Assembly: GCA_030445695.1 (NCBI GenBank)
Contig: JASUTF010000003.1
Span: forward strand, 1 to 47,787
Length of the DNA: 47,787 nucleotides
DNA from: Candidatus Iainarchaeum sp.
GTDB lineage: Archaea > Iainarchaeota > Iainarchaeia > JAADDC01
Direction of reading: 5' to 3'
Part shown: piece by piece, positions 3,355 through 44,436 of the stretch
Numbering within the stretch: the stretch's first letter is position 1
How the letters are laid out: every line of letters starts with the position of its first letter
The notes under the pieces: model-generated
Databases searched by the model: none
Seen by the model: the letters and a program-made list of their open reading frames with translations, nothing else
What the model was told of the DNA's origin: nothing
Program-made: the position numbers and the translations under genes

Positions 3355-3372
3355 GGTTCGGGTTTCGAACCG
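3354..3372. other. 7-bp-stem hairpin (cggttcg-ggttt-cgaaccg) between the PCNA gene and priL
   Basis: Perfect inverted repeat read directly from the sequence. It lies in the 5' region of priL if priL starts at 3318. Function unknown. Confidence 0.3.
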
Positions 3373-3387
3373 GAAAAGAAAGAGAGT

Positions 3388-4137: not shown

Positions 4138-4141
4138 GGTA

Positions 4142-5264: not shown

Positions 5265-5270
5265 TAGAGC

Positions 5271-6245: not shown

Positions 6246-6278
6246 GTTTTGAAAAGGAGCAGGGGGTATATATTGGTG

Positions 6279-7724: not shown

Positions 7725-7804
7725 CGGGAGAATGGGAGACGTTGATGTGGCGGTATACAGGGGCGTAGTCCTCGAAGGAGTAGCAAAAGTGCCGATATAC
7801 ATGG

Positions 7805-8857
7805 TCATTCCCTCAGCCGCACCGCCCTGACGTAACCACGGACGTTGAGGCGGCGGGTCTCCACAACACCCAAGGATTCCAGCTCCTTTATGTAGTTTCG
7901 GAACGCACGGAGCGTTATCTTATCCGCCCTGCGAACGTACTCCTCATACAGCTCCTTCACGGTGAGCTCTCCCCTCTCGCGGAGGATCTCCACGATGGGG
8001 ATGAACTTGGGGTCCACCGACTCGTGGCGCGACGACTTTATGAGCCCCTCAACGCGGCGCACGTGCTCAGGGGTTATTCTATCGGCACCTTCCCGCTCCG
8101 CAAGGACAGCCGCCTCGTAGAGGCAGGAGATTGCTGCCCTGGCGTCGCCGCCCCGCTTCCAGCCGATGGCTGCACAGAGGCCGATTACGTTCTCGTCATA
8201 CGTCCCCTCCGCCAGAGCGATTTTTGCCCTCTCGCGCAGGATGTCCTTGAGCTGGGGAACAGTGTACGGCGAGAACTCCACCTTTCTTGAGAAGAGCGTC
8301 GAGTATATGCGCGGGTCCAGGCGGTAGACGAAGGACTCGGAGTTGGCAATGGTGATGATGACCGTGGGGACTTCAAGAAACTCGTGGAGGCGGGAGAAAT
8401 CGTAGAGAACGTCGGTGGACTCCCTGGAGAGCCGGTCCACCTCGTCCAGAACAATCACGGCACCACGGGAGTCGTTGAGCCGGGCGAATATGCGGTCATA
8501 CGCCTCGTCCGGTGCCACACCCCTCCGGGGGACGGGTATGCGGAGCTCCTTGGCAAGGAAAGAGATGATGGAATACCTTGTGCGGTAGACCCAGCAGTTT
8601 ATGTATGTCTGGAACGTCAGGGGGGAGTAAGAAGAGAGTTCCCGGAGGATATAGCGGACGGATGCCGTTTTCCCCGTTCCCGGCGGGCCGACAACGAATA
8701 TATTCGAGGAGTGCCCAGTATCAAGCGCGTAGGATATTGCAGAGGCGATTTCCTTCATCTGTGCCTCACGGTGGGGGAGAACATCTGGAATGTAGTCCGT
8801 ATCGAGGACTTCCGGGCGGAGGAGGATTGTGGCACGGGGTTCCTCAAACAGGCCCAT
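7805..8857 (-). CDS. cdc6: Orc1/Cdc6 replication initiator
   Basis: 350 aa with GPPGTGKT (Walker A), VIVLDEVD (Walker B), an AAA+ lid and a C-terminal winged helix (LESLGVVETRRLNVRGYVRAVRL). Confidence 0.92.
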   Translation of the reverse strand: MGLFEEPRATILLRPEVLDTDYIPDVLPHREAQMKEIASAISYALDTGHSSNIFVVGPPGTGKTASVRYILRELSSYSPLTFQTYINCWVYRTRYSIISFLAKELRIPVPRRGVAPDEAYDRIFARLNDSRGAVIVLDEVDRLSRESTDVLYDFSRLHEFLEVPTVIITIANSESFVYRLDPRIYSTLFSRKVEFSPYTVPQLKDILRERAKIALAEGTYDENVIGLCAAIGWKRGGDARAAISCLYEAAVLAEREGADRITPEHVRRVEGLIKSSRHESVDPKFIPIVEILRERGELTVKELYEEYVRRADKITLRAFRNYIKELESLGVVETRRLNVRGYVRAVRLRE

Positions 8858-8876
8858 GAAGAAAAAGGGAAGGGGA

Positions 8877-8885
8877 TTTATAAAT
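8877..8885 (-). promoter_or_regulatory. TATA box for cdc6
   Basis: tttataaat centred about 24 nt upstream of ATG 8857, which implies a leaderless or very short-leader mRNA. Confidence 0.5.
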
Positions 8886-8911
8886 TAGTGGTTGTTACGT
8901 CTTTCCGCTGA

Positions 8912-9223
8912 TCAACGGAGGAGCTTCCAGCGAATGACTGTAACGGGAGAATCGGGGGTAATATCGGGGTATATGCGGCGCAGGTGCTTTATGAGTGCGT
9001 TGAGCGACTTGAAGCCCTCCATTTTTATCTCGTGCTCCGATAGTTCCCTGAGCTTCTTGACGTAGACGTGCGTGATCTTGGCGCGGGCGATGGGCTTTCC
9101 CCGGACGGCCAGAAAGACGATGTTTCCTGGACGAACGTCGTAAGATCTTCCGTATCGGATGGTGATCCTCTTTTTCCCCGAGAGGACGTCCCTCTCATAC
9201 TCGGGGCGGAAATGGAGCATCAC
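8912..9223 (-). CDS. ASCH-domain protein, YqfB-like (candidate N4-acetylcytidine amidohydrolase)
   Basis: 103 aa. DVLSGKKRITIRYG ... ALIKHLRRIYPD ... VTVIRWKLL parallels my recollection of E. coli YqfB along its whole length. There is a 4-nt overlap with the upstream tmcA. Confidence 0.75.
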   Translation of the reverse strand: MMLHFRPEYERDVLSGKKRITIRYGRSYDVRPGNIVFLAVRGKPIARAKITHVYVKKLRELSEHEIKMEGFKSLNALIKHLRRIYPDITPDSPVTVIRWKLLR

Positions 9224-11502: not shown

Positions 11503-12256
11503 CGTGGGCGTCCGCTATGTAGACCTCCGTGATCACCGAGAGGGACAGAACAAAGGAGATCGCCTGGTAGAGGACCAGGAGGAAGTCAGATGCCCACGGA
11601 GCCCGGAGAGCAATGAAGTCAAAGATGTAGAGGAGAAGGGTGGTAACGATGGAGACGGCGAGCATGTAGAGGATGATACGGATCCAGCGTCTCCTGCCAA
11701 CGAGGACGCCGTCACGCAGTGCCTTGGAAACGGTGTCTGCATCGATGACGAGGGCTGCCATGGAGGGCGCGACCACCGGTGTGTAGACGAGGAGGAAGAT
11801 GAGGAAGAGGGCGAACATGACAGTAAGTAAAGATATGCTGTAGGAGAAGTAGAGCATGAGGGTGAAGAAAACGGACACCGGTGCAAAAACGATTATGGAA
11901 AGGATTATGAATGGGATCAGAACGTCAACGGCCCTCTTGAACGGGTTCTCGGGGTAGCCCACGCGTTTCTTGGCGATCCAGCCGATGACCACGAGTGACA
12001 GATACGTCATCAGGACTCCGTAGATGAGGACGGAGAGGAGGACAAGGGGGTCTGAGAGGGCGGAGAGGGCATCGTAGAATGCAGACCGCATGGCGAGCAG
12101 GGGATCGGGCGATGCAAGGATCGTGAAGAAGTATGACGACTGGACCTCCGCAAGAGCAGATCCGAAGGCGTAGAACATACCGTAGAGGAAGAGAATGACC
12201 ACCGCGAGCAGGCCCAGATCAAAGGCGTCCGCCAGAACCCTCTTGAAGACGGCCAT
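11495..12256 (-). CDS. polytopic membrane protein, function unknown
   Basis: 253 aa with 5-6 hydrophobic helices. A TATA box lies about 27 nt upstream. Confidence 0.6.
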   Translation of the reverse strand: MAVFKRVLADAFDLGLLAVVILFLYGMFYAFGSALAEVQSSYFFTILASPDPLLAMRSAFYDALSALSDPLVLLSVLIYGVLMTYLSLVVIGWIAKKRVGYPENPFKRAVDVLIPFIILSIIVFAPVSVFFTLMLYFSYSISLLTVMFALFLIFLLVYTPVVAPSMAALVIDADTVSKALRDGVLVGRRRWIRIILYMLAVSIVTTLLLYIFDFIALRAPWASDFLLVLYQAISFVLSLSVITEVYIADAHGE

Positions 12257-12277
12257 CAGAGAAAATACGCCCCGGAA

Positions 12278-12288
12278 GTATTTAAATG
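12278..12288 (-). promoter_or_regulatory. TATA box for membrane-protein gene 11495-12256
   Basis: gtatttaaatg centred about 27 nt upstream of ATG 12256. Confidence 0.45.
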
Positions 12289-12300
12289 CGCAAGCACGAG

Positions 12301-12310
12301 ATTTATAAAC
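12301..12310 (+). promoter_or_regulatory. TATA box for the acidic miniprotein gene
   Basis: atttataaac centred about 32 nt upstream of ATG 12338. Confidence 0.45.
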
Positions 12311-12337
12311 TCTACTCCGCCGTTGATAGCGATCGCC

Positions 12338-12496
12338 ATGGTGGAGGAGGAGAAGGAGAAGGAAGAGTACTACGAGGGTGAGGAGATCGACGAGGAAGAG
12401 TGGGAAGAAGAGGACTGGGACGAGGAAGAGTGGGACGAGGACTGGGACGAAGATGAGGACATAGAGGACGAGGACTACGACGAGGAAGAGTGGTAA
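12338..12496 (+). CDS. hyper-acidic Trp-rich miniprotein, 52 aa (below the ORF-track size cutoff)
   Basis: Own translation: MVEEEKEKEEYYEGEEIDEEEWEEEDWDEEEWDEDWDEDEDIEDEDYDEEEW*. It has its own TATA box. The 3' end overlaps the convergent AEP gene by 22 nt. Confidence 0.45.
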   Translation: MVEEEKEKEEYYEGEEIDEEEWEEEDWDEEEWDEDWDEDEDIEDEDYDEEEW

Positions 12497-13218
12497 GGGT
12501 CAAATTCTTCCAACTTCTTCCTACTGACGGGCAGCACAACAAGGCCGGAGATGCCGTTCAGCGTATACGGTAGACGGGCCAGGGAAACGCCGCCCGCGGT
12601 CACGGGAACGTCCACACCGTATGAGGCGTAGCGTCTTGCAAGTTCCACCCGCTCCTCTATAGTATAGAGGAACGTGTCCTCATCGCGGACGTGGATGTGG
12701 AAACCCCTGCCAGAGAAGACGATGCGTAAACGGGAGAACTCCTCGGCCAGGGCATCATAAAGGCGGATCACAGCATCTTTAACGGCGGGGAACTCCTCGG
12801 GGCCCACCTCATCACGCCTTTTCCCGGTCACCCTTTCCGGATCAACGTCGAACATCAGCTCCTGGCCCAGATAGTTGGGGCAGCGTTCGCATAGGTTCCT
12901 ACGCCTGAAGAACTTCAGGGGGCAGCCATAGCAGTATTCGGGGTCGGAAACAACGTTCCTCCAGTAATAGACGCCCTCCGGCAGGTATTTCAGGAGCTTG
13001 GCACGCAGGGCCTTGGGGTTCCGCACGTTCCGGAGATACACCATCCTGTATCCCTGCCGAACGAGGGAGAGCATGCGGTCAGTTGCTATACGCGTGTACC
13101 AGCCGGGGTTTATGGCAAAAACAGGGGTTGCAGATATGGTTCGGGCCCACGAGAAGGCATTCCGTGCATCGAAGGATCTGTAGAAGACCCTCCTCTCCTC
13201 GAGTGTGGGGGGAGGCAC
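12475..13218 (-). CDS. second, compact PriS-family archaeo-eukaryotic primase (AEP) / primase-polymerase-like protein
   Basis: 247 aa with all three AEP motifs: ELMFDVDPE (DxD), FSGRGFHIHV (SGxGxH) and LARLPYTLNGISGLVV (compare LIRVPDSIHGSTGL in PriS at 1205-2455). It has a PriS-like N-terminus (LEERRVFYRSF...LPEGVYYWRN) and a CxxC...CxxC knuckle (CYGCP...CERCP). GTG start. Confidence 0.75.
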   Translation of the reverse strand: MPPPTLEERRVFYRSFDARNAFSWARTISATPVFAINPGWYTRIATDRMLSLVRQGYRMVYLRNVRNPKALRAKLLKYLPEGVYYWRNVVSDPEYCYGCPLKFFRRRNLCERCPNYLGQELMFDVDPERVTGKRRDEVGPEEFPAVKDAVIRLYDALAEEFSRLRIVFSGRGFHIHVRDEDTFLYTIEERVELARRYASYGVDVPVTAGGVSLARLPYTLNGISGLVVLPVSRKKLEEFDPYHSSSS

Positions 13219-13248
13219 AATAGATAATGGTTTCCGGGGGAAATATAT
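13219..13248. promoter_or_regulatory. 30-bp head-to-head promoter region shared by the AEP gene and lhr
   Basis: caatagataatgg (about 25 nt before lhr ATG 13249) and aaatatatat (about 25 nt before AEP GTG 13218, read on the other strand). Both TATA-like elements are interleaved. Confidence 0.4.
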
Positions 13249-15990
13249 ATGGTGAACGGGGAGGAAAAGATCCTTGAACTCTGGAAGAAGCGGGGCCTCA
13301 GGGAGCCCACAGAGGTGCAGAAGAGAGCATACCCCCTCATACGCAGTAGCAAGAATGTCCTGATCATCGCACCGACGGGCTCCGGGAAAACGGAGGCAGC
13401 CCTCATTCCCGTGCTTGCAGAGATGCTGAACACGGAAGCGAGACCTGTGACGCTGTTATACATAACTCCCCTCCGCGCCCTGAACCGCGATATGCTGGAA
13501 CGCATACGGTGGTGGGGAGAACATCTGGGGTTCCGCGTGGACGTCCGGCACGGGGACACAACCCAGTACAGGCGATCCAAGCAGGCCCGCGAGCCGCCAC
13601 ACATACTCATAACGACGCCCGAGTCGCTGCAGGCCATGCTCCCCGCGGAGAAGATGGGAGCACACCTGAGGAACGTGAAATACGTCATAATCGACGAGAT
13701 ACACGAGCTGGTGGGGGAGAAGCGAGGATACCAGCTGGCCATTGCCCTGGAGCGGCTCAGGGAGAAGACGGGGCACGAGTTCCAGAGAATAGGGCTCTCG
13801 GCAACCGTGGGTTCCCCCGATCTCGTGGCACACTTCCTGGGCGGGAAAGGGCGAAGCGTGGAGATCGTGGACGTTTCCATGGAGAAAGATTACCGCATAA
13901 CCGTGACATACCCCACGCCAGACAGGAAGATGCGGGAGGAGGCGAAGAAGCTCGGGCTCTCCCCAGACGTCTACGCACGCGTTCTGAAGCTGAAGGAAAT
14001 CGTGGAGCGGCACAGGCAGGTAATCACCTTCGTGAACACGAGGAACATGGCGGAACAGTTGTCCCTGTATTTCTCGGCGTTCCACGACAGGACAGACGTG
14101 CATCACTCATCCCTGTCGAGGGACGTGCGCCTTTCCGTTGAGAAAACGTTCAAGTCGGGCGAGATAAAACACCTCATTGCGACGTCATCCATGGAGCTGG
14201 GCATAGACGTGGGGGAAGTGGACGCCGTGGTCCAGTACGGATCCCCGAGGCAGGTGACCCGGCTAATCCAGAGGGTGGGGCGTTCGGGGCACAGGTGGGA
14301 CCGCCCATCCATCGGATACATCATTGCCCTGGACGGAAACGATTTCGTGGAGGCAGCCGTGATTGCAAAACTCGCCACGAGGAAGCAGTTAGAGCCCATC
14401 GCGCAGGAGGAAAAGCCGTATGACGTCCTTGCACACCAGATCGCCGGCATCCTCATGGACTGGGGGGAGATAGACATAAGGGAGGCATACGAGATCGTGC
14501 GCCGGGCCCAGCCCTATGAGAACCTGAGCGAGGAGGAGTTCTGGGAGGTTGTAAAGCAGCTGGAGTCGGAGCGCTTCCTTCGGGTGAGGGGAGACAGGAT
14601 CACCAAGTCAAGGGACACGTGGAGGTATTATTACTACAACCTGAGCATGATCCCCGACGAGGAGCGATTCTACGTGGTGGACACCATAAGCGGCAAGCGT
14701 GTGGCCACGCTGGACGAGGACTTCGTCACATCATACCTGGAAAACGGCGTCGTCTTCGTGGTCAAGGGCCGACCGTGGCGTGTGGTCACCATAGAGGACA
14801 AGAACGTCTACGTGGAGCCGTCTGAGAGTTTGGTGGGAGCAATACCGGCGTGGATAGGCGAGATGATTCCCGTGGAGAAGAGTGTGGCGGAGGAGGTCTG
14901 GCGCGAGCGGAGGAGAATCGGAAAGGGCATGGAGACCATAGGGGACGTGGCCAGCGTGACGGACATCGACAAGGTGCGGGAGCTCTTCAGGGACGTTCCG
15001 GGGGAGAACGAGGTACTAATAGAGAAGAGTGAAGAATATGTAGTCATACACGTCCCCCTCGGCTCTAAAGGAAATACAACGCTCTCCCGGCTGATAGCAG
15101 CCGAGATATCGAGGAGGTATGGCATGCCCGTTCGCGTGTTCTCCTCCCCCTACGCAATAGTCATCGAGTTCCCCGCCCCGGGTTTCCCCGTGGAGGAGGT
15201 TGAAAAGATCCTGAAGACGGTGGACCCGGAGGTGCTCGACATCATACTGGAAAACCACATAGCCAAGACGAATCTCTTCAAGTGGCGGTTCATACACGTG
15301 GCAAAGCGGTTTGGCCTCATATCAAAGAACGCAAAACTGGACAGGATAAACGTGCGCCGGCTCGTTGATGCCCTTACTGATTCTCCTGTCTACCGCGAGA
15401 CGCTGAAGGAGCTCTACGCGGAGAAACTCGACGTGGACGCCGTGAAGGAACTCCTGGAAGACATACGTGCTGGGAAGCGGAAGATCACAATACGGGATGG
15501 TATAGGTAAAATAGGAAAGATGGAGCTCTCGCGGGCGCTCCAGGTCCCCGAACTCGTGAGCCCTGACACGCCGGAGCACACCATCGTGGAACTCTTCAAG
15601 CAAAGGGTCTTAGAGAAGAAGGTAACGCTCATGTGCATCTCCTGCGGCGCCGAACACGTATACAAGGTGTCAGAGGTGCCGGAGCAGCCGAAGTGCCCGA
15701 GATGCGGATCCCCCCTCGTCGCGGTGGTCCACAACGTGGAGAAGGCAAGGGAGATATTGAAGAAAAAGAAGCTAAGCAGGGCAGACGAGAGGAAGATGAC
15801 TGACTTGATTAGGAGCGCGGAACTGGTAAAGGAGTTCGGCAAGAAGGCAGTCATAGCGATGGCGGTAACGGGGATCGGCTCGCAGACAGCGGCACGCATC
15901 TTGAGAGTCCCCTACAGCGAGGAGGAGTTCTGGAAGGCACTTCTGGACGCGGAAAGGAACTACTACAGGACAAAGATGTTCTGGGGCTAG
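13249..15990 (+). CDS. lhr: Lhr-type large ATP-dependent SF2 helicase
   Basis: 913 aa with APTGSGKTEAA (motif I), LLYITPLRALN (Ia), DEIHE (II), SATV (III), VGRSGHR (VI), an Lhr/DEAD-associated middle region and a C-terminal zinc ribbon (CISCG...CPRCG). Confidence 0.85.
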   Translation: MVNGEEKILELWKKRGLREPTEVQKRAYPLIRSSKNVLIIAPTGSGKTEAALIPVLAEMLNTEARPVTLLYITPLRALNRDMLERIRWWGEHLGFRVDVRHGDTTQYRRSKQAREPPHILITTPESLQAMLPAEKMGAHLRNVKYVIIDEIHELVGEKRGYQLAIALERLREKTGHEFQRIGLSATVGSPDLVAHFLGGKGRSVEIVDVSMEKDYRITVTYPTPDRKMREEAKKLGLSPDVYARVLKLKEIVERHRQVITFVNTRNMAEQLSLYFSAFHDRTDVHHSSLSRDVRLSVEKTFKSGEIKHLIATSSMELGIDVGEVDAVVQYGSPRQVTRLIQRVGRSGHRWDRPSIGYIIALDGNDFVEAAVIAKLATRKQLEPIAQEEKPYDVLAHQIAGILMDWGEIDIREAYEIVRRAQPYENLSEEEFWEVVKQLESERFLRVRGDRITKSRDTWRYYYYNLSMIPDEERFYVVDTISGKRVATLDEDFVTSYLENGVVFVVKGRPWRVVTIEDKNVYVEPSESLVGAIPAWIGEMIPVEKSVAEEVWRERRRIGKGMETIGDVASVTDIDKVRELFRDVPGENEVLIEKSEEYVVIHVPLGSKGNTTLSRLIAAEISRRYGMPVRVFSSPYAIVIEFPAPGFPVEEVEKILKTVDPEVLDIILENHIAKTNLFKWRFIHVAKRFGLISKNAKLDRINVRRLVDALTDSPVYRETLKELYAEKLDVDAVKELLEDIRAGKRKITIRDGIGKIGKMELSRALQVPELVSPDTPEHTIVELFKQRVLEKKVTLMCISCGAEHVYKVSEVPEQPKCPRCGSPLVAVVHNVEKAREILKKKKLSRADERKMTDLIRSAELVKEFGKKAVIAMAVTGIGSQTAARILRVPYSEEEFWKALLDAERNYYRTKMFWG

Positions 15991-16412
15991 CGGACAAGAA
16001 CGACGAGGCGGTTTCCCTCGCGATCTGGATAGGCGTCGAGAAGGACAGAATTTCCATTCACGTCAAAATCCGCGGACAAATACCAGTTGCTCCCGTTCAC
16101 GAGCCGAACAACCTTGCCGCCACGGCTCTGGATCTCACTCACCAGTGCATCAGGGCCTCCGGGAACGGGGGAGTAGTAGAGGAAGTAGCGGCCGCCGGTG
16201 CTGTGGCGCATCACGAGGGACGCGTCGGGATAGGCGGAAGTCACGATCCCGTGGGCAAAAACTTCTAAAGGGGCGACGGGGCGAATGGGCACGGGCTTTT
16301 CTTCAGAAGAAAGGACGGAATAACCAGTGATACGTATTTGGGGAGCGAGGCGCCAGGCAGCATAGACAACGACAAGGAGGAGTAGGATCTTTACTATGCG
16401 GGGGACGTGCAT
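15987..16412 (-). CDS. N-terminally membrane-anchored or secreted protein, unknown function
   Basis: 141 aa. The hydrophobic N-terminus (IVKILLLLVVVYAAW) is followed by a beta-rich domain. Confidence 0.55.
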   Translation of the reverse strand: MHVPRIVKILLLLVVVYAAWRLAPQIRITGYSVLSSEEKPVPIRPVAPLEVFAHGIVTSAYPDASLVMRHSTGGRYFLYYSPVPGGPDALVSEIQSRGGKVVRLVNGSNWYLSADFDVNGNSVLLDAYPDREGNRLVVLVR

Positions 16413-16462
16413 GTAATGAAAACGCAGTTACGCATTTCAAGCATTTCGGAACGATTACCTAC

Positions 16463-17242
16463 ATGCCCACCGTAGTGGTATCCAAGAGGGACATGGCGTC
16501 CGTTCTCATCGGTGAATACTTAACGGAGAACTACTTCGAGAAAACGGACAAGACCTTTGGCAACTACCACGTCTTCAGATACAAAAACGCGGACCTCATA
16601 ATCATCGACACGGAGCACATATATGCGGACTGGCTGGAAGAAAAGTACCCGTCGGACCTCTACATCGTTGCATCTCGCCACTCCGCGGAGTCGGGGATTC
16701 CGTGCCTCACGGTGCACACAACGGGAAACTGGGGGGACGCCATGTATGGCGGCAAGAGCAGAACGCTGTCGAGGGCCCCCGCACAGCACATGCTCTCGGC
16801 GCTCCGCTACCTGAAGGAACACCCCCTCGAAGGATTCTCCGTCTCCTACGAGGTGACGCATCACGGCCCCACCACAGAAACCCCCATCATGTTCGTGGAG
16901 GTGGGGAGCACGGAAAACGAGTGGGGAAACGAGGAAGCGGCAGCGGTGGTGGCCGAGGCAATAATCGCCGGGCTCGAGCCGGAGAAGGTGCCGACCGCCA
17001 TAGGGGTGGGCGGCGGCCACTACGCACCCCGCTTCACCGAGATAGCCCTGAAGAAGAGTATAGCGTTCGGCCACATGGCACCGAGATACGCCTTCGACTA
17101 TTTGGACGAGTACATGCTTCGTCAGGCGGTGGAAAAGACCGTCCCGAGGCCGGAGTACTACGCGATGCACGGGGTGAGCGAAGAGGTAAAGGAGACATTG
17201 GAGGAAATAGTGGAGGAATACGGTCTGCAGAGGATCAGGTGA
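16463..17242 (+). CDS. dtdA: D-aminoacyl-tRNA deacylase, archaeal DTD2 type
   Basis: ASRHSAESGIPCLTVHTTGNWG, SYEVTHHGPT, GVGGGHYAPRF and IAFGHMAPRYA match the DTD2 signature blocks. 259 aa. Confidence 0.88.
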   Translation: MPTVVVSKRDMASVLIGEYLTENYFEKTDKTFGNYHVFRYKNADLIIIDTEHIYADWLEEKYPSDLYIVASRHSAESGIPCLTVHTTGNWGDAMYGGKSRTLSRAPAQHMLSALRYLKEHPLEGFSVSYEVTHHGPTTETPIMFVEVGSTENEWGNEEAAAVVAEAIIAGLEPEKVPTAIGVGGGHYAPRFTEIALKKSIAFGHMAPRYAFDYLDEYMLRQAVEKTVPRPEYYAMHGVSEEVKETLEEIVEEYGLQRIR

Positions 17243-18617
17243 GCTGTTCCCCTATAACCTCGTCGAGCTCTCTTAGGAACTCCTCCTCCGCTCCCCTTGG
17301 TATCCTTGCACCGGCTGCGGGCCGGTGGCCGCCCGCCTCTCCGCCCACGTGGGCAGCTGCCCTCCTCATGGCCTCCGCCAGATCCAGACCCTTGCGCACA
17401 AGGGAAGAACTGGCACGGGCAGACACCTTGACGAAGCCCTCTTCCTCATACGCCATGCCCACTATGGGCCGGTCAGGCGGGACGATACCGGAACCGTAGA
17501 CCATGCCCGCCACGATGCCCACGAGGGACGCCGGAATGAAGGAACGGGCGTGGAAGAAGTAAAAGTTTCCGTAATCCTCTATGCCGTACTTCTCCACCCA
17601 CTCTATTCCCCTACGCAGGGCCTCCCTGTGCTCGTGCAGAAGTTTGAGCGCCTCTGAATACCAGCGGTCGCGGTCGCCCATGGCAACGTGAACGCCGACC
17701 TCCGGGCGTCCATGCCGTCCACAGGCGTTGAGGAGCGTAGCGTACTCCCGGACGTCACGCAGGGGGGAGTGCAGATCCTCGTCCGTGAGCTCGTACACCT
17801 CGCCTATGAGCTTGGCGATTTTTTCCTCGCTCCAACCGGCACGGGAGAGGTAGAGGGCAAGTTCCGTGAAGAGATGTCTTTTCTCCTCCTCGTTCAGATC
17901 CACATATGATATCCAGACGCCCTCGCGCACGTATTCTATCCCTGCACGGCGGAGAAGGTCAAAGACGGCGTCCTCGTTCGCCGTCAGCCCGGGAAGCACG
18001 GGATCAGACGAGTAGACGAACATGTAAGGCAGCGGCCTCGATGCCCTGCCGTAGAGCGCCAGATCCCTGTATGCGAATACCTTTCCGGAAGCGATGGCAT
18101 CCCTTAGAACAACATCACGGTTGTAGCCGGTTAGGGCGCCCCGCACGAGCTGCACGTCGCCCACCGCACCGACCACCGCAACGGGTGCAAGGGAGATGTC
18201 GCCGGTGAGCACCCTGGCGAGGGCGTATGCCACGCCTGCCCCGCTGATCTCATGGGCCCCGTCCAGGCCGAAGAAGTGGGGGTGCAGAAGAAGGGGGTAG
18301 TCCTCCCCTTTCGGTATCTGGTGGTGATCCAGAACCACGAAGGGCTTCCCGAAACTGCGACGGAGCGTGGGGAGCTGGCCCACGCCGAGGTCCGCAAAGA
18401 TGAAATGCTCCCCCATGTCCTGGATACGCTCGATGTCGTCGGTGTAGAGCTGCTTGAGGTTGATAAAACGCACTTCCTTACCCATCTGCTCCAGGGCGGA
18501 GACGAGGATGGCCGTGGATGTGATACCGTCCGCGTCGTAGTGCCCCACCACAACAACGTCGTCCCAGCCACGCACAACGTTCGCTATCCTCTTTGCCAGT
18601 TCCAGAAAGCCGTCCAC
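17235..18617 (-). CDS. DHH/DHHA1 phosphoesterase, archaeal RecJ/Cdc45-like nuclease (GAN/HAN family)
   Basis: VVVGHYDADGITS (motif I/II), VVLDHHQIP (DHH) and GGEAGGHRPAAGARI (DHHA1 GGH). 460 aa. Confidence 0.8.
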   Translation of the reverse strand: MDGFLELAKRIANVVRGWDDVVVVGHYDADGITSTAILVSALEQMGKEVRFINLKQLYTDDIERIQDMGEHFIFADLGVGQLPTLRRSFGKPFVVLDHHQIPKGEDYPLLLHPHFFGLDGAHEISGAGVAYALARVLTGDISLAPVAVVGAVGDVQLVRGALTGYNRDVVLRDAIASGKVFAYRDLALYGRASRPLPYMFVYSSDPVLPGLTANEDAVFDLLRRAGIEYVREGVWISYVDLNEEEKRHLFTELALYLSRAGWSEEKIAKLIGEVYELTDEDLHSPLRDVREYATLLNACGRHGRPEVGVHVAMGDRDRWYSEALKLLHEHREALRRGIEWVEKYGIEDYGNFYFFHARSFIPASLVGIVAGMVYGSGIVPPDRPIVGMAYEEEGFVKVSARASSSLVRKGLDLAEAMRRAAAHVGGEAGGHRPAAGARIPRGAEEEFLRELDEVIGEQLT

Positions 18618-21221: not shown

Positions 21222-21681
21222 GCTGTTTGGAGGAAAGGATCTGCTCAAAGACCGACTCGACAAACGCCGCGGGGTCAGCGTAGGACGACTCGAAGCCCTT
21301 GGCAAAGCGGTAATTGCCTCCTCGAACCTTCGTTTTCTCTATGATCCCTGCGGCTTCCAGACGGCGCAGATGGTACCTTATTGCCTCCATCACCACGGGC
21401 TTTTCCCCACGCTCCTGACGCCGGCGGTTAACAAACACGTGTATCTGCTCAACGCTGGGTTCCACATCCTTCCCGTGGATGTAGTAAAAGATCGCGTCCA
21501 GAACGTCTATAACCGCGTCCCTCTCATCTCCGGGCGATATAAGACCGAGAGAAAGCGCAACCCATCGGAGCAACTGCCTGCGCCTGGACAGGATTTCAGG
21601 GGGTAGTTCAAGGAGGCGGATGGTCCATTCCCTGCGAACGAGAGCTGCCTCGGGGTGGACATTTTTTGAACGCTTATACAT
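21178..21681 (-). CDS. winged-helix DNA-binding protein, unknown function
   Basis: MEAIRYHLRRLEAAGIIEKTKVRGGNYRF is a typical wHTH recognition helix plus wing. The start is set at ATG 21681 (MYKRSKN); the track start at 21723 is a TTG. Confidence 0.55.
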   Translation of the reverse strand: MYKRSKNVHPEAALVRREWTIRLLELPPEILSRRRQLLRWVALSLGLISPGDERDAVIDVLDAIFYYIHGKDVEPSVEQIHVFVNRRRQERGEKPVVMEAIRYHLRRLEAAGIIEKTKVRGGNYRFAKGFESSYADPAAFVESVFEQILSSKQLIEKAVRNLASLYK

Positions 21682-21795
21682 AAACACCACTTCCAAACAT
21701 TCTTCTTTACAATACAAAAACAATGCTTGCGAAAACTATTTAAATGACCTTGACCTTATAGCCACGGGCGAGGGGGGCGAGGAGGATGAAAGGCC

Positions 21796-22008
21796 ATGAA
21801 GATACTGACGTGCGCGGTATGTGGTGTTCCTCTTCGCCCCGAGGAAGCGAGGAGATGTCAGGAGTGCGGCCACATCGTGTGCCGCAAGCACATAAGATAT
21901 CATAACGGAAAAGGGGTATGCGTAACGTGCCTTAGGAAAAAGCTCCACAAGGAGGCGGCACCGGCGCGGAGAGAACTAGAGCTCGAACTGGCAGTGATAC
22001 AGTTCTGA
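21796..22008 (+). CDS. small zinc-ribbon protein
   Basis: 70 aa with CAVCG...CQECGHIVC...CVTC. A GGAGG lies about 10 nt upstream of the ATG. Confidence 0.5.
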   Translation: MKILTCAVCGVPLRPEEARRCQECGHIVCRKHIRYHNGKGVCVTCLRKKLHKEAAPARRELELELAVIQF

Positions 22009-40680: not shown

Positions 40681-41331
40681 GTGTTCACGTTCGGAGAAGA
40701 TATGAGTCCAGCATTCAGGCGAAAGTTGCGCGAAGAAATAAAGATCCCTGAGCAACCGGTGAAGCACCAAGAACACGTTGCAGAACTTGCTAAGCGGGTT
40801 GCCGACATGGAACCACACGAGAGAACGCTAATACGCCTATCGATCGACCCGAGATACGCCGCAGATGGCCGGAAGACATCAATAATCTTTGAACCAGTAG
40901 CGATAGTACCAAAAAATGTTGATGGGAAAAATGTGCTTCAAATGCTCCGTGGAAACAGTATTGAAGATTTCGTGGACTTCGGGGGCCTGGACAACATTGT
41001 GGGGGTATCTGGGTACGCCTACACCCGCACAGGCAGAAAGATACCAATCATTGTGAAAAAGTGGGAATTCTCGCCAAGCTACCCAGATGCAAGGGAACTC
41101 TTCGGACTTGGAACCATATACCTTGCCCCGGGCAACAGGAAAGCGCTTATACGCGGTAAATTGGGACGACTAACAGGCATACAGGTAGTTGGAAGGGGTC
41201 TGACACCCGATGACTATCTAATGAACATGATACGACTATATGCAGAGCAGATTATTAGGCAAGAGGGAACCGCCGATCGTGGTAAAGGATTACTATCCAC
41301 CGAACGTCGCGAAAGTTATCGGCTGGTTTGA
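40681..41331 (+). CDS. hypothetical protein (216 aa). Its 3' end overlaps the next ORF by 53-92 nt in another frame.
   Basis: Clear ORF; no motif recognised. Confidence 0.5.
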   Translation: MFTFGEDMSPAFRRKLREEIKIPEQPVKHQEHVAELAKRVADMEPHERTLIRLSIDPRYAADGRKTSIIFEPVAIVPKNVDGKNVLQMLRGNSIEDFVDFGGLDNIVGVSGYAYTRTGRKIPIIVKKWEFSPSYPDARELFGLGTIYLAPGNRKALIRGKLGRLTGIQVVGRGLTPDDYLMNMIRLYAEQIIRQEGTADRGKGLLSTERRESYRLV

Positions 41332-41734
41332 TCTTGTGACAGGACGTGTCAGCAGCAAAAAAGACGTACAGGAAACGTTGAACAAAATCCTTGGAACCGC
41401 AATAGAGGAAACCAGAGCTCTGGTCCAGTTGCAGAAGGAATACACGAAGATAAGGGGCTCTTCCCTGAATGCCAGAGAATTTCTGGAATTCGTTGACACT
41501 AAAGGCGCAGGTGAGACGGGTATTGAGCGAGCACGGGCATGGTTCGAGTCAATGTTGCAATCACCTCAGTTCTGGCGTTGGGCAACTGCAAGGTTCCGGC
41601 ACCTGTTGCCAAAATCTCGGGCGAAGCAGATGCGAAAGTTTGTACTTAGTGCGTTAACAGTCGAAGAGAGATTGCACCGACTGAGAGTCGCGGAAAAGCA
41701 CGCAAACGCCATGGTTGTACGGCAGCTCATATAG
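41240..41734 (+). CDS. hypothetical helical protein (164 aa), possibly the frameshifted continuation of 40681-41331
   Basis: The ORF lies in the +1 frame relative to the previous one. An alternative GTG start lies at 41279. Confidence 0.45.
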   Translation: MQSRLLGKREPPIVVKDYYPPNVAKVIGWFDLVTGRVSSKKDVQETLNKILGTAIEETRALVQLQKEYTKIRGSSLNAREFLEFVDTKGAGETGIERARAWFESMLQSPQFWRWATARFRHLLPKSRAKQMRKFVLSALTVEERLHRLRVAEKHANAMVVRQLI

Positions 41735-41838
41735 CGCAAGAGTTGCTCAGCCCTCGCCGCTCCTCGTCATCCCAGCGGTCCCGGGGGCAAGGCATCATCA
41801 TCGCTGGATAAAATTGGTGGGGGGACGGTTTAACAGGG

Positions 41839-42189
41839 CTACTGGCACGGAACCGGGACCTGCTTGTCGGCACCTCTCCAGACAAAAGACACTGTCACGG
41901 ACTGATATGTGCCGGTAAAGGTCTGGGCAACGGACCAGCCGGCCTGAATCTCCGGCAAGATCGCAAGTTCCTTTCCATCGGGCAAAATGACCCTAAGATT
42001 CGAAACGTCTTCGACAGCAGCGATCCGCACAATGGTTTTCCCCGCAAGGTATGTGCACTTAGCGGCCACTGGGCTCTCAGGAACCACAGATATTGGCGTT
42101 TTGCTCGTGTCGCTCGCTACAGCAGAGTGTAGGACGTGTATAAGCGCGCCGAGCGCTGCAAGTACTACTATTATCTTCGCTAACCGCAT
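41839..42189 (-). CDS. small secreted beta-rich protein
   Basis: Start set at ATG 42189 (MRLAKIIVVLAALGALIHVLHSAVA, a signal-peptide-like N-terminus). The track start at 42213 lies directly against the TATA box. Confidence 0.5.
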   Translation of the reverse strand: MRLAKIIVVLAALGALIHVLHSAVASDTSKTPISVVPESPVAAKCTYLAGKTIVRIAAVEDVSNLRVILPDGKELAILPEIQAGWSVAQTFTGTYQSVTVSFVWRGADKQVPVPCQ

Positions 42190-42213
42190 GTGGTGATTAT
42201 GGATTTTGGGCAT

Positions 42214-42221
42214 TTATAAAC
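42214..42221 (-). promoter_or_regulatory. TATA box for 41839-42189
   Basis: tttataaa centred about 28 nt upstream of ATG 42189. Confidence 0.45.
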
Positions 42222-42248
42222 CTGGCTAGGTGCGATGCTCCGAAATTT

Positions 42249-42260
42249 GTTATACATAAC
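42249..42260. repeat. box copy A: gttatacataac (GTTAT-AC-ATAAC palindrome)
   Basis: Read directly from the sequence. Confidence 0.6.
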
Positions 42261-42417
42261 ACATGTAAGGGTCTGGATGATACCATACCAACAAACTACA
42301 TTTTTTAAAATATTAAATTTGTTTAACTACGTAGCTTGCAATCTCATTCAATGGATACCTTAAAAATTATTATTTGCAGGGTATGCAAAAAATATTGCCA
42401 ACAGGATACAGATTGTA

Positions 42418-42433
42418 GTTATATACATAACGC
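42418..42433. repeat. box copy B: gttatatacataacgc (GTTAT-ATAC-ATAAC palindrome plus GC)
   Basis: Read directly. It shares tatacataacgc and about 18 further similar nt with copy C. Confidence 0.6.
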
Positions 42434-42463
42434 AGATTCCGCTGTTTCAGCACCAATTGTGAA

Positions 42464-42480
42464 GCCAGAATATGGGGTAA
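42464..42480 (+). repeat. module R1: gccagaatatggggtaa
   Basis: One of three direct copies of CCAGwwTwyGGG(G/T)TA, each followed within about 15 nt by AAAACA. Confidence 0.5.
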
Positions 42481-42660
42481 GAGTACGAAAACATTGTGTA
42501 AAGTGGGACTTTTTGACAAAAACTATGTTTGCATTGTTGGTAGCATAAACAAACATATTTTTTGTATATGGAAGATATTGCTACAAATAATGTCATAAAA
42601 ATAGTGATTCTTTTACAAACAGTTTATTTTGATATACTGTAATCAGAAGTGATAGAACAC

Positions 42661-42676
42661 GCCAGATTTTGGGTTA
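42661..42676 (+). repeat. module R2: gccagattttgggtta
   Basis: Second copy. It is preceded at 42632-42644 by a degenerate box (atatactgtaatc). Confidence 0.45.
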
Positions 42677-42878
42677 TGCAAAAACACATTACGGCGCGGT
42701 ATTTTAGGCGAAGAAGTTGGATTCTGTGGCAGGTCATTTTTGGGGTGTTACTGTAGGAAATCACGGATTTTTTTAGAATAATCAAAAATAATATTGGGTT
42801 TGTTGGGAAGGACAAGTGAAACGCGGGTTACCGTGATTTTACGGGATGGAACGATAAAAATTTTGGTTAAAATGAAAC

Positions 42879-43220
42879 TCACTGCAGGCGCTCCAGATGC
42901 CTGTAAAGGCCCTCAAGATCGTGTGCTAGCTCATCACCGCGTTCAGTGAGCTCAATGTAGCGAGTTCTACCCTCTTTGGCGGTTTTCACGATACCAAGTT
43001 CTTCGAACCGCTTCACCAGCTTGACCATGTGAGGGTACGTGGTGTCGACCTCCTTTGCAAGTGCGGATACATACCACTTTCGTCTGCGATCGCGAAGGAG
43101 AATGATCGCCTTGGCTGGCTTCACCTTCAAGAAAAGTCCCACGGTGTCGTTGCTCCCGGCCATATAGATACTCATGCATATATCTCCTTTTAAAGATTTA
43201 GATAGGACGAATGAAAGCAT
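42879..43220 (-). CDS. small winged-helix transcription regulator (ArsR/MarR-like)
   Basis: WYVSALAKEVDTTYPHMVKLVKRFEELGIVKTAKEGRTRYIELTERGDELA is a canonical wHTH. An alternative start at ATG 43175 (MSIYMAGS) is preceded by AGGAG. Confidence 0.7.
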   Translation of the reverse strand: MLSFVLSKSLKGDICMSIYMAGSNDTVGLFLKVKPAKAIILLRDRRRKWYVSALAKEVDTTYPHMVKLVKRFEELGIVKTAKEGRTRYIELTERGDELAHDLEGLYRHLERLQ

Positions 43221-43281
43221 TTAGCAGTTAATATAGTATCTATTTTGTTAATTTGCACATAGATTCTTATGGAGCTATTCC

Positions 43282-43293
43282 TATACATAACGC
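43282..43293. repeat. box copy C: tatacataacgc
   Basis: Read directly. It lies in the divergent intergenic region between the wHTH gene and the PRC-barrel gene. Confidence 0.6.
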
Positions 43294-43314
43294 GAATACC
43301 ACAGTTCTATAGAT

Positions 43315-43324
43315 GTTATGTATA
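43315..43324. repeat. box copy C-prime: gttatgtata, the inverted copy of tatacataac, 21 nt from copy C
   Basis: Exact 10-nt reverse complement of 43282-43291. Confidence 0.6.
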
Positions 43325-43344
43325 AGTATGCAACCCCCTTAACT

Positions 43345-43361
43345 TCCAGTATTCGGGGTAA
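43345..43361 (+). repeat. module R3: tccagtattcggggtaa
   Basis: Third copy of the CCAG...GGGGTAA module, followed by aaaaacac. Confidence 0.5.
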
Positions 43362-43410
43362 AAAACACCGCGTGTTATTAGTTCAGGAGTGGGGGATATA
43401 CACAGCAACA

Positions 43411-43418
43411 TTTAAATA
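43411..43418 (+). promoter_or_regulatory. TATA box for the PRC-barrel gene
   Basis: tttaaata lies about 40 nt upstream of ATG 43454. A GAGGTGA Shine-Dalgarno-like element lies about 8 nt upstream of the ATG. Confidence 0.4.
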
Positions 43419-43453
43419 CTCTTAATGGTTTTTCTTGGCAGGAGCAGAGGTGA

Positions 43454-43780
43454 ATGATCATGACCATCGAGCTATCGAAGATGTTCGGGATGGACATATA
43501 CTCAATTGACGCGGAATACGTCGGAAAGGCCTATGACTTCGTAATAGATCTGGAACAGGGCAGGGTTTCCAAGATCACCCTCGAACCATTCAAAGTGAGG
43601 TCCAAGAAAGAGGCAGCAGAGATACTCAAGAAGAAGAGTGTTGGGTATGAGAAAGTGATCGCGGTCAAGGATATTATCCTCATCGACCCGCGCAAGACGG
43701 CAGCTCCAGTGAAGCAGCAGCCAGTACAGTCAACGTACTCCCGGTTCGGTGCACGTAGGGGTATTCTTGGCAGACGATGA
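43454..43780 (+). CDS. PRC-barrel domain protein
   Basis: ELSKMFGMDIYSIDAEYVGKAYDFVIDLEQGRVSKITLEP is the usual PRC-barrel pattern (G..V......lG.v.D...d...g.v). 108 aa with a basic tail. Confidence 0.72.
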   Translation: MIMTIELSKMFGMDIYSIDAEYVGKAYDFVIDLEQGRVSKITLEPFKVRSKKEAAEILKKKSVGYEKVIAVKDIILIDPRKTAAPVKQQPVQSTYSRFGARRGILGRR

Positions 43781-43815
43781 ACAGGAATTATGTATATTCC
43801 CACTTCTTTTTAATC

Positions 43816-43825
43816 TACATAACGC
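43816..43825. repeat. box copy D: tacataacgc
   Basis: Read directly. It lies 45-54 nt upstream of ATG 43870, just downstream of the T/A-rich stretch cttctttttaat. Confidence 0.55.
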
Positions 43826-43869
43826 ATATTCTACCTGACTAACTACAGGATTACCGGAAGTGAAGGGCC

Positions 43870-44436
43870 ATGCCATACCATGGATACCGCGTCATGTATT
43901 CCATCAAATGGAGCGGCAAAAAGTCCGCTTACATCTACCAGCGCTTTTTCCGGGCAATTTACGGGTACACGCAGGTCGTGGTCAAGGGTAACGGACGCCG
44001 CTACGTTTATTATCGTGAAGGCGTCCTCACGAAATATCCGTTCATCAAAGAGGGCAAGAATATGGTGGTTGTCCCCGACAACGCGTTGCAACCCCTCCTA
44101 AATTTCCTTAAGACGGGGCAGAACCCCGCTCACCGCTTTAGCTTCTCTGCAAACTGGCCCGAGCTCGTGAAGTACAGCATGGAGGAAACATCTGTGGATG
44201 ATCATCCTGCATCCATGGCGGTTCTCGAGGCCCTAGGCAGGATCAAAGTGTCACTTGTTGGGGGCCCCGTTTCGGCCCGCGATCTTCTCCAGCGTGTGGA
44301 TATGCTCCAGCCCGATGAGCTCTACGCTCTATACTATGCTGTAACGCCCATACTCCAGTCCAACTGGGTCAGAGCACTCGCGAGCACAGAACCACAGCTC
44401 TTCGAGCGGCTTCGCCTGTTACAGTCACGTGTCTGA
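43870..44436 (+). CDS. hypothetical protein (188 aa) with a beta-alpha-beta N-terminal module and a possible C-terminal HTH
   Basis: YRVMYSIKWSGKKSAYIYQRFFRAIYGYTQVVV...RRYVYYREGVL, then AVLEALGRI...GPVSARDLLQRVDMLQPDELYALYYAVTPIL. I could not assign a family. Confidence 0.55.
   Translation: MPYHGYRVMYSIKWSGKKSAYIYQRFFRAIYGYTQVVVKGNGRRYVYYREGVLTKYPFIKEGKNMVVVPDNALQPLLNFLKTGQNPAHRFSFSANWPELVKYSMEETSVDDHPASMAVLEALGRIKVSLVGGPVSARDLLQRVDMLQPDELYALYYAVTPILQSNWVRALASTEPQLFERLRLLQSRV

Follow-up and report, generated by a model that had tools for sequence, protein, structure and literature searches.

The window analysed here, that is, the whole stretch of 47,787 nt from Candidatus Iainarchaeum sp. 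(contig JASUTF010000003.1), contained an AT-rich, gene-poor region near its right end that was made up of two intergenic regions separated by one small gene. The main spacer (nt 42190–42878, about 689 nt) lay between a 116/124-aa gene on the left and a gene encoding a small winged-helix (wHTH) DNA-binding protein, whereas the second spacer (nt 43164–43459, 296 nt, 35% G+C) separated the wHTH gene from a gene encoding a PRC-barrel protein and carried the divergent promoters of both. The left neighbour most likely starts at nt 42189 on the minus strand, giving 116 aa as in relatives, behind a canonical TATA box (TTTATAAA, nt 42214–42221, minus strand); TTTAAA was conserved 25–32 nt upstream of the ATG in the relatives. 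The wHTH gene (nt 42879–43163, minus strand) was assigned 94 aa, starting from Met20 of a 113-aa open reading frame, because its homologues are 91–94 aa and a TATA box (nt 43188–43194) lies 25–31 nt upstream of the ATG at nt 43163. To the right, the PRC-barrel gene (nt 43460–43780, plus strand; Pfam PRC, E = 8e-9) was followed by a conserved 188-aa gene of unknown function (nt 43870–44436, plus strand) with no Pfam or NCBIfam hit.

The first of these spacers (nt 42214–42878) was 33.8% G+C and the second (nt 43164–43453) 35.2%, against 54.9% for the window. A nearest-neighbour stability scan placed the three least stable 100-nt segments of all 47.8 kb here, at nt 42544–42643 (21% G+C, the least stable and the best candidate DNA-unwinding element), nt 43162–43261 (26%, the second least stable) and nt 42276–42375 (24%, the third least stable and also a candidate unwinding element), and the A/T tracts listed in the preliminary description (nt 42301–42327, 42595–42637 and 42765–42798) were present. 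When six-frame translations of nt 42200–43470 were searched against nine relatives, only the wHTH gene, and its PRC neighbour at the right edge, gave conserved peptides. No tRNA, no Rfam match at gathering score, no tandem repeat, no sigma-70 promoter and no intrinsic-terminator-like site was found in the region; a permissive E-value search of Rfam gave only one spurious hit, and there was no Rfam hit in nt 41800–44000 even at E ≤ 5. RNA-folding z-scores were unremarkable (minimum -2.3 among 38 windows, mean -0.34). The preliminary observation of a drastically AT-rich, largely gene-free locus was thus confirmed, although several details required correction. It had placed the gene-free parts at about 660 bp (nt 42222–42878) and about 230 bp (nt 43221–43453), whereas the revised starts give the lengths stated above; it had counted about 40 G+C per 60 nt in coding lines, whereas coding DNA holds about 33; and its statement that genes elsewhere overlap or are separated by fewer than 110 nt was not exact, since gaps of 507, 368, 237, 236 and 218 nt exist, all with normal G+C of 0.48–0.57. 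The two families of short repeats that it mentioned were real and are designated here M (GTTATGTATA) and K (the palindrome ACAAAAANTATNTTTG).

The length of the main spacer, 688, 698 and 708 nt in the relatives' loci L005, L020 and L022, respectively (loci of relatives are denoted by L and a number), was conserved while its sequence diverged, and conservation was confined to short motifs. A proximal M copy (GTGTTATGTATA, nt 42251–42262, minus strand) occurred at the same place in L005, L009, L010, L020 and L022, and a distal copy (TGCGTTATGTATA, nt 42422–42434, minus strand) with conserved downstream positions formed an invariant block in two alignments; the spacing of about 160–170 nt between these two direct copies, which enclose the AT-rich stretch at nt 42276–42375, was conserved as well. 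A pair of K palindromes (ACAAAAACTATGTTTG, 18 nt, CAAACATATTTTTTGT) was located at nt 42516–42565; K copies recurred in the gaps of L005, L010, L014, L022, L039 and L061, and the 18-nt spacing in L020 and L014. In the second spacer, two divergent M copies formed an inverted pair (TATACATAAC, 23 nt, GTTATGTATA) at nt 43282–43326, and an equivalent pair with a 20–36 nt spacer was found in L006, L007, L009, L014, L020, L022 and L039. Next to it was an element with a G-string, designated Box (TACTGGAAGTTAAGGGGG, nt 43333–43351, minus strand), present in every relative at the same place; a second, inverted copy (TTACCGGAAGTGAAGGG, nt 43849–43867, plus strand) abutted the ATG of the 188-aa gene, so that the PRC-barrel gene lies between the two Box copies. 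A metagenome scan for the Box gave 42 loci, of which only 3 were relatives and the rest were unrelated coding matches. A convergent M pair (ATTATGTATA, 17 nt, TCTACATAAC) was observed at nt 43787–43825.

The predicted wHTH protein showed Pfam hits only below the curated cut-offs, and its best solved relative by sequence was AF1382 (E = 1.3e-9). Residues 24–113 of the 113-aa frame were modelled mostly at pLDDT of 80 or more, and the model had a winged-helix fold with a C-terminal dimerisation helix, of the MarR/ArsR/AF1382/Sso10a/AspA-like type; fold matches included MepR, AF1382 (TM 0.84), Sso10a-2 and AspA. Distant relatives of the protein were found in DPANN-labelled MAGs, although two PCNA genes and a PriX-like protein encoded elsewhere in the window are unusual for DPANN. 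These belong to a replication-gene island 25–43 kb away that comprises GINS51, PriS and the PriX-like protein, the two PCNA genes, Lhr, a GAN/RecJ-like DHH protein and an Orc1 gene (nt 7805–8857, minus strand). The latter possessed Pfam Cdc6 lid, AAA and WH domains and was of the Orc1-1 (initiator) type, its best PDB matches being A. pernix ORC1 (3e-51) and S. solfataricus Cdc6-1 (1e-45), far above ORC2 (3e-11). It lies 34 kb from the AT-rich locus, is flanked by gaps of only 54 and 80 nt, and shows no change of skew across it.

Strand asymmetry was examined at four-fold degenerate sites. Left of 43.3 kb, plus-strand genes showed a GC skew of +0.13 and an AT skew of +0.33 on their coding strand, and minus-strand genes -0.15 and -0.24, so that the plus strand is G- and A-rich irrespective of transcription; right of 43.3 kb the sign reverses and the strand becomes C- and T-rich. 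All nine bins from 0 to 43.3 kb had the same sign, and this was the only sign change in the window. The pooled per-gene purine-pyrimidine skew fell from +0.24 (116-aa gene) through +0.09 (PRC-barrel gene, inside the transition zone) and -0.04 (188-aa gene, at the right edge of that zone) to -0.31 (the next gene, of 160 aa) within 2.5 kb. The flip falls within 42.2–44.4 kb, and relatives showed the same flip. The cumulative GC skew was at a maximum here.

The M motif occurred 17 times in the window against 0.86 expected, and 16 of the 17 copies pointed away from nt 43291/43315, that is, from the inverted pair (binomial p = 2.7e-4). In the window plus eight relatives, 87 of 93 copies obeyed this rule, and the 6 exceptions were one orthologous site, the second copy of the convergent pair at nt 43787–43825. 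Four further copies in the 2.4 kb beyond the window's right end were read from contig L001 of the same organism and also obeyed the rule; the assemblies end about 2.4 kb beyond the window. Polarity as a by-product of gene orientation was rejected, since a rule based on gene strand was obeyed by 19 and violated by 8 of 27 coding copies, all of which obey the position rule; a by-product of base skew was rejected because composition would predict about 2:1 (estimated from the four-fold skews), whereas 16:1 was observed. M as the core promoter of the neighbouring genes was also rejected, since each gene has its own TTTAAA-type TATA box at the expected distance. Copies were densest near the locus, about 1–1.4 per kb within 7 kb against about 0.13 per kb beyond 12 kb.

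The coincidence of the skew switch with the polarity switch of M indicates that the 42.2–44.4 kb zone is a replichore boundary. The preliminary description had proposed a replication origin in a non-canonical context, and this interpretation is partly supported: the zone is most likely the origin of the chromosome, of a lineage-specific and non-canonical type (probability about 0.5), but the support, though real, is indirect and the sequence data cannot tell an origin from a terminus. In this view, replication would start in or next to the easily melted DNA at nt 42276–42375, 42544–42643 and 43162–43261, and forks leaving in both directions would, over time, have made the strand exposed as lagging-strand template T-rich and G-poor on each side, while the M sites, the K palindromes and the two inverted Boxes would be the protein-binding architecture, with the Orc1-1-type protein and/or the small, presumably dimeric winged-helix protein as possible partners. 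What the analysis itself establishes is the AT-richness and lack of genes, the conserved position and length of the gap, the switch of neutral-site bias, the over-representation and polarity of M, and the conserved elements; that the boundary is the origin rather than the terminus, that DNA synthesis initiates here, where unwinding would begin, and which protein binds which element are inferred.

Besides the low duplex stability and the conserved gap length, an origin is favoured by the Orc1-1-type gene and the replication-gene island 25–43 kb away, a proximity inferred to be unlikely by chance for a terminus, and by the sharpness of the switch, which sits at the same syntenic spot in relatives whose wHTH proteins share 60–88% identity with that of the window, whereas archaeal termination is described as diffuse (PMC2958812). 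The AT skew is about twice the GC skew and the T-rich strand is also G-poor, which would fit purine loss or G-to-T damage on the exposed template if forks move away from the locus, and haloarchaea set a precedent for C-rich leading strands (PMC1868953). Origins without discernible ORBs, or not next to an initiator gene, are documented (PMC3089459; bioRxiv 10.64898/2026.08.15.744077). On the other hand, a cumulative GC-skew maximum, although origin-like by the haloarchaeal rule (PMC1868953), marks the terminus in bacteria, thermophilic archaea and the DPANN archaeon Ca. Forterrea (PMC1868953, PMC5905446); polar motifs that pile up at a switch, such as KOPS at dif and Ter sites, do so at termini; genes immediately flanking the zone mostly point toward it; the 23-nt spacer of the inverted M pair is too short to be an unwinding element; and one relative, L039, keeps the M switch without the wHTH gene or the AT-richness.

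Compared with archaeal Orc1/Cdc6-dependent origins of ORB(-)/DUE/ORB(+) architecture, the locus shares a long AT-rich intergenic region that contains unwinding-prone DNA and short repeats of opposite orientation, a location at an extremum of the disparity curves, albeit of ambiguous polarity, and an Orc1-1-type gene and replication genes in the neighbourhood. It differs in that no initiator gene is adjacent, M is also scattered with polarity through coding DNA tens of kb away, and no canonical ORB or mini-ORB (GTTCCAGTGGAAAC...GGGGG) was present: a search of the window gave 3 hits at up to 3 mismatches against 4.3 expected, none in the locus, and the extended pattern 20 hits against 18.9 expected. 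The Box only loosely resembles an ORB, with a shorter dyad and a shorter G-string spacing than the consensus (PMC1868953). M and Box both occur as inverted pairs, but the Box pair flanks the PRC-barrel gene and the two M copies that flank AT-rich DNA are direct repeats. As in the WhiP-dependent oriC3 of Sulfolobus, a winged-helix gene is embedded next to a chromosomal AT-rich region with no adjacent orc1. However, WhiP is described as a Cdt1 relative (PMC3607249); it is larger and has tandem wH domains, whereas the protein here is a 94-aa single wH of the predicted MarR/AF1382/Sso10a type, and the TACTACTACTAC motif, whose repeats go with the IR(+)/UCM/IR(-) arrangement of WhiP-type origins, was absent from the AT-rich region, the one nearby 2-mismatch hit lying in coding DNA. 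With centromere-like protein/site clusters near origins (ParB-parS, archaeal AspA, the Sso10a chromatin protein) it shares a small, presumably dimeric wH protein of AspA/Sso10a-like predicted fold whose gene sits in a cluster of short, partly palindromic sites (M core GTTAT-GT-ATAAC and K), but no ParA or SegA ATPase gene is adjacent and the M sites are polar.

Replication landmarks are essentially unmapped in uncultured archaeal lineages, and since prediction tools depend on ORB motifs next to orc1 genes, this locus would be missed by them; it offers a concrete, conserved and testable case of a replichore boundary defined by neutral-site skew plus a polar, 20-fold over-represented 10-mer. If it is an origin, it shows an ORB-less origin separated from its Orc1-1 gene, with a resident winged-helix protein. 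Either way, M is a candidate architecture-imparting sequence far more specific than the 4-mer ASPS known so far.

The strongest alternative, less likely but possible, is that the locus is the replication terminus, toward which the polar M sites would guide or trap something, either as KOPS/ASPS-like guides for a translocase or as Ter-like one-way fork barriers bound by the adjacent winged-helix protein. The convergence of the G-rich strands here is terminus-like by the rule cited above for bacteria, thermophilic archaea and Ca. Forterrea, and the converging genes, the M density and the lack of ORBs also count in favour of a terminus. The M sites form two opposed groups that flip at an inverted pair about 90–120 nt upstream of a small wH gene (119 nt in the window), which is the layout of a fork trap; in Bacillus subtilis, the rtp gene lies beside the inverted TerI/TerII pair, and, as in the RTP/Ter trap of that species and the Tus/Ter system of E. 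coli, the arrangement coincides with a skew switch. The AT-rich DNA could also be a chromosome-domain boundary like that of Thermococcus kodakarensis, in which dif lies in a 1.9-kb intergenic region whose DNA, with the wH protein TrmBL2, forms an SMC boundary (PMC11840125). Against this, no RTP or Tus was among the 66 PDB sequence matches of the wHTH protein at E ≤ 1, nor RTP or Tus among the top 50 fold matches, and M sites at about one per kb are far more numerous than any known Ter system, with about ten sites per genome. No dif-like site (11-nt inverted arms, 6–8 nt spacer, TAA-N-TTA core) was conserved in the locus or in nine relatives, and no FtsK or XerA gene was seen among the window ORFs scanned against Pfam or among the called genes of the relatives' loci. 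M, a 10–12-mer, also differs from ASPS (PMC2958812), which are 4-mers, and its flip at one locus is also expected at an origin. Fork traps are not known in archaea, and the strong excess of A over T on the supposed leading strand would be hard to obtain from known single-strand damage. The boldest form of this reading, a terminus with a sequence-directed system without archaeal precedent, in which M sites conserved even inside genes and the winged-helix protein either trap converging forks, as an RTP/Ter analogue that arose independently, or steer a translocase or SMC complex to the AT-rich boundary, is unlikely but not excluded, polar arrest and binding being inferred from the arrangement alone. 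If the locus is a terminus, it would be the first sign of site-specific, motif-directed termination or chromosome organisation in archaea.

It is doubtful that the region is only a regulatory hub in which the wHTH protein autoregulates and controls its neighbours (the 116-aa, PRC-barrel and 188-aa genes) through M, K and Box operators, the AT-richness merely reflecting stacked promoters and the coincidence with the strand-bias switch having no replication function. Canonical TATA boxes serve the three genes, M, K and Box elements lie upstream of them, the predicted fold is MarR/ArsR-like, and K resembles a BRE/TATA promoter, since a K-like site sits beside a true promoter at 21.7 kb and K sites lie upstream of a C/D box sRNA in L020 and L009. 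However, this does not explain the 690 nt of conserved-length spacer downstream of the wHTH gene, the M copies with position-dependent polarity inside coding regions up to 30 kb away, the neutral-site skew switch, or the retention of the M switch in L039 without a local wHTH gene.

The small-RNA promoter cluster offered as an alternative in the preliminary description is not supported inside the coordinates stated there and appears very unlikely. A C/D box sRNA, invariant among relatives, does lie about 400 nt to the left (nt 41745–41805), and the K palindromes look promoter-like, but no C/D pattern was found inside the gap, no covariance model matched nt 42190–43459, folding was ordinary, and the sequence between the short motifs was not conserved among relatives. 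The other alternative offered there, a scar of foreign AT-rich DNA, considered here as a remnant of horizontally acquired DNA that came in with the wHTH gene, is likewise not supported and is the least likely: although the composition is strongly atypical and the wHTH gene is inverted in L016 and absent from the locus in L039, where the AT-richness is also absent, the gap keeps its position and length in at least eight relatives, whose wHTH proteins are 66–88% identical to that of the window, there is no integrase, direct-repeat border or tRNA, and the wHTH gene has normal G+C and shares the local skew.

The preliminary description of this locus as AT-rich and largely free of genes was borne out. 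The window, an archaeal chromosome segment, has a G+C content of about 55%, whereas nt 42214–42878 and 43164–43453 were 33.8% and 35.2% G+C, respectively, and a nearest-neighbour stability scan placed the three least stable 100-nt windows of all 47.8 kb inside the locus, at nt 42544–42643, 43162–43261, and 42276–42375. The A/T tracts named in the preliminary description were present. When six-frame segments of nt 42200–43470 were searched by tblastn against nine related loci, only the winged-helix (wHTH) gene and the start of its PRC neighbour were conserved, and no tRNA, Rfam family, tandem repeat, or unusually stable RNA fold was detected in the region. Three details required correction. The wHTH gene starts at nt 43163 rather than 43220, since its homologues are 91–94 aa and a TATA box lies 25–31 nt upstream; the left neighbour starts at nt 42189 behind a TATA box at nt 42214–42221; and gaps of 218–507 nt do exist elsewhere in the window, contrary to the claim that they are all shorter than 110 nt, although they are of normal composition. 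A second long stretch without a called gene, about 400–500 nt with 52% G+C, was found at nt 41332–41744, where the 164-aa ORF at nt 41240–41734 had no Pfam hit and no conserved translation in relatives.

Related contigs (designated with the prefix L) were retrieved with the wHTH protein as the query. The order TFIIE ... 162-aa, 160-aa, 188-aa, PRC, wHTH, gap, 116-aa gene ... LeuRS was conserved. The gap downstream of the wHTH gene was 688, 698, and 708 nt in L005, L020, and L022, respectively, against 689 nt here, and was AT-rich there too, yet its sequence was mostly unalignable. More distant homologues lacked the big gap (L018/L019 at 61% identity and L011-L013 at about 50%). Structural variants of the locus were observed in L016 (nt 3200–4500), where the wHTH gene is inverted and lies between the diverging copies of the M motif described below, and in L039 (nt 12195–13250), where the wHTH gene and the AT-richness are missing at this place, a third Box-like copy is present, and the M switch sits beyond the homologue of the 116-aa gene.

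Several short elements survived the divergence. M, YGTTATGTATAW, was located at nt 42251, 42422, 43282, 43315, 43787, and 43814, whereas K, a palindrome ACAAAAANTATNTTTG, was present in two or more copies in the gaps of most relatives. The Box, TTACCGGAAGTNAAGGGGG, occurred in every relative as two inverted copies flanking the PRC gene (nt 43333–43351 and 43849–43867 here). This G-string element (TACCGGAAGTNAAGGGGG) was conserved as an inverted pair even in the distant L013 (nt 182–196 and 4296–4310), a contig labelled Ca. Iainarchaeum whose wHTH protein is only 49% identical, where it sits next to a different palindromic repeat (TACGTAATATTACGTAA); it loosely resembles an ORB with a shortened dyad. 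Ordinary TTTAAA-type TATA boxes were found at the expected distance from the three neighbouring genes, and M is therefore not their core promoter. A short AT-rich promoter region at nt 21670–21800, upstream of a small Cys-rich ORF (nt 21798–22007), held an M-like site (CTTATACATAAAC) and a K-like site (ACAAAAACAATGCTTG) beside a canonical TATA (AACTATTTAAAT), suggesting that K resembles a BRE/TATA promoter. Two small PRC-barrel genes lie near the locus (nt 43460–43780; L001 nt 163–426), the former exactly between the two inverted Box copies in the zone where the strand skew is neutral; PRC-barrel proteins have been linked to archaeal cell division.

Two independent signals changed sign at the locus and mark it as a replichore boundary. 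The first was neutral-site composition. At four-fold degenerate sites left of 43.3 kb, plus-strand genes had a GC skew of +0.13 and an AT skew of +0.33 on their coding strand, whereas minus-strand genes had -0.15 and -0.24; the plus strand is therefore G- and A-rich whichever way the genes are transcribed, and to the right the signs invert. All nine bins from 0 to 43.3 kb agreed, and nothing changed at the orc1 gene. Pooled over up to twelve related loci, the per-gene purine skew was +0.20, +0.17, and +0.24 for the HD, 213-aa, and 116-aa genes, then +0.09, +0.09, and -0.04 for the wHTH, PRC, and 188-aa genes, and then -0.31, -0.17, and -0.21, which places the transition zone at 42.2–44.4 kb.

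The second signal was the M 10-mer, the most unexpected element of the locus. GTTATGTATA with up to one mismatch occurred 17 times against 0.86 expected; all ten copies left of nt 43300 were on the minus strand and six of seven to the right were on the plus strand (p=2.7e-4). Four more copies in the 2.4 kb beyond the right end of the window, read from contig L001 of the same organism, followed the rule. Contig L001/L024, seen in two samples (SRR23823818_3338), ends about 2.4 kb past the window, two other contigs carrying this stretch end even earlier, inside the window, and none of the contigs examined extended further right, which may point to a repeat or variable region there. Across the window and eight relatives, 87 of 93 copies pointed away from the inverted pair, the six exceptions being one orthologous site between PRC and the 188-aa gene. 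Gene orientation explained the data less well (19 copies fit, 8 did not), and base skew alone would predict a ratio of only about 2:1. The density was about 1–1.4 copies per kb within 7 kb of the centre and about 0.13 per kb beyond 12 kb. Copies of M (GTTATGTATA) at nt 13457, 21675, 22990, 23032, 32162, 35466, 39657, 44621, 45177, 46083, and 47245, and at nt 94–1897 of L001, lie inside coding regions in different reading frames; several recur in orthologous genes of relatives and all follow the position-dependent polarity. This looks like a DNA-level signal under selection, comparable to an architecture-imparting sequence.

A conserved, sharp, strand-symmetric switch of this kind is what replication origins and termini produce. 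The locus is thus almost certainly a replication landmark of a non-canonical kind, more likely the origin (a probability of about 0.5) than the terminus, and the origin interpretation in the preliminary description is partly supported. The AT-richness, the skew switch, and the polarity of M were observed in the sequences themselves, whereas the choice of origin over terminus, the mutational cause of the skew, and the binding of any protein to the short elements are inferred. In favour of an origin, the DNA is the most easily melted in the window and keeps its length in evolution. The Orc1 gene 34 kb away is of the initiator (Orc1-1) class, matching A. pernix ORC1 at 3e-51 against 3e-11 for ORC2. 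It sits in an island of replication genes (nt 642–18617) encoding GINS51, PriS, a PriX-like protein, two tandem PCNA genes, a Ten1-like OB-fold protein, a KaiC-like ATPase, the Orc1-1-type Cdc6, a second primase-like gene, Lhr helicase, and a GAN/RecJ-like DHH protein, although neither a skew switch nor a large intergenic region was found next to orc1. The switch is also sharp and syntenically fixed, whereas archaeal termination zones are described as broad (PMC2958812). The skew is of the purine/pyrimidine type with an AT component about twice the GC component, which we infer is most simply produced by purine loss or G-to-T damage on the exposed template if forks move away from the locus. Haloarchaea already show C-rich leading strands (PMC1868953), and ORB-less origins as well as origins not adjacent to an initiator gene are documented (PMC3089459; bioRxiv 10.64898/2026.08.15.744077). 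However, neither an ORB nor a WhiP motif was found.

A terminus is the strongest alternative, though the less likely of the two. The cumulative GC skew is maximal here, which is the terminus signature in bacteria, thermophilic archaea, and the DPANN archaeon Ca. Forterrea, whose origin abuts cdc6 (PMC1868953, PMC5905446). Polar motifs that pile up at their switch point are known for termini, namely KOPS/ASPS toward dif and Ter sites, and the layout mirrors that of B. subtilis rtp-TerI/II, in which two opposed groups of sites meet at an inverted pair just upstream of a small dimeric wH gene. The genes closest to the zone converge on it, and in T. kodakarensis dif lies in a 1.9-kb intergenic region that forms a wH-protein-dependent SMC boundary (PMC11840125). 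On the other hand, no dif-like site was found, and no similarity to RTP or Tus was detected by sequence or fold comparison of the embedded protein.

This 94-aa protein was modelled confidently, 87 of the 90 residues from 24 to 113 having a pLDDT of 70 or more and 59 of them 90 or more, as a predicted winged helix followed by a long C-terminal helix. Its best sequence relative with a solved structure was the uncharacterised AF1382, and its fold neighbours were MarR/ArsR regulators, AF1382, the Sulfolobus chromatin protein Sso10a-2, and the plasmid centromere-binding protein AspA. By analogy, it is a plausible dimeric binder of the palindromic K sites or of the pseudo-palindromic M core (GTTAT-GT-ATAAC), although L039 keeps the M switch without a local copy of the gene.

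The suggestion that the stretch is a scar of foreign DNA is contradicted by the conservation of its position and length. The other alternative raised, an ncRNA hub, is not supported within the AT-rich stretch, although K sites look promoter-like and low-level transcription cannot be excluded. One C/D box sRNA of about 61 nt (AGCGATGATGATGCC...CTGG GATGACGA...CTGAGC) does lie nearby, at nt 41745–41805 on the minus strand, with only sub-threshold Rfam hits (sR1, E=0.005; snoPyro_CD, E=0.04). Of its 61 nt, 59–60 were invariant in L061, L009, L020, L005, and L014, while the flanks diverged; in L014 it directly follows an M copy, whereas in L020 and L009 a K palindrome lies just upstream.
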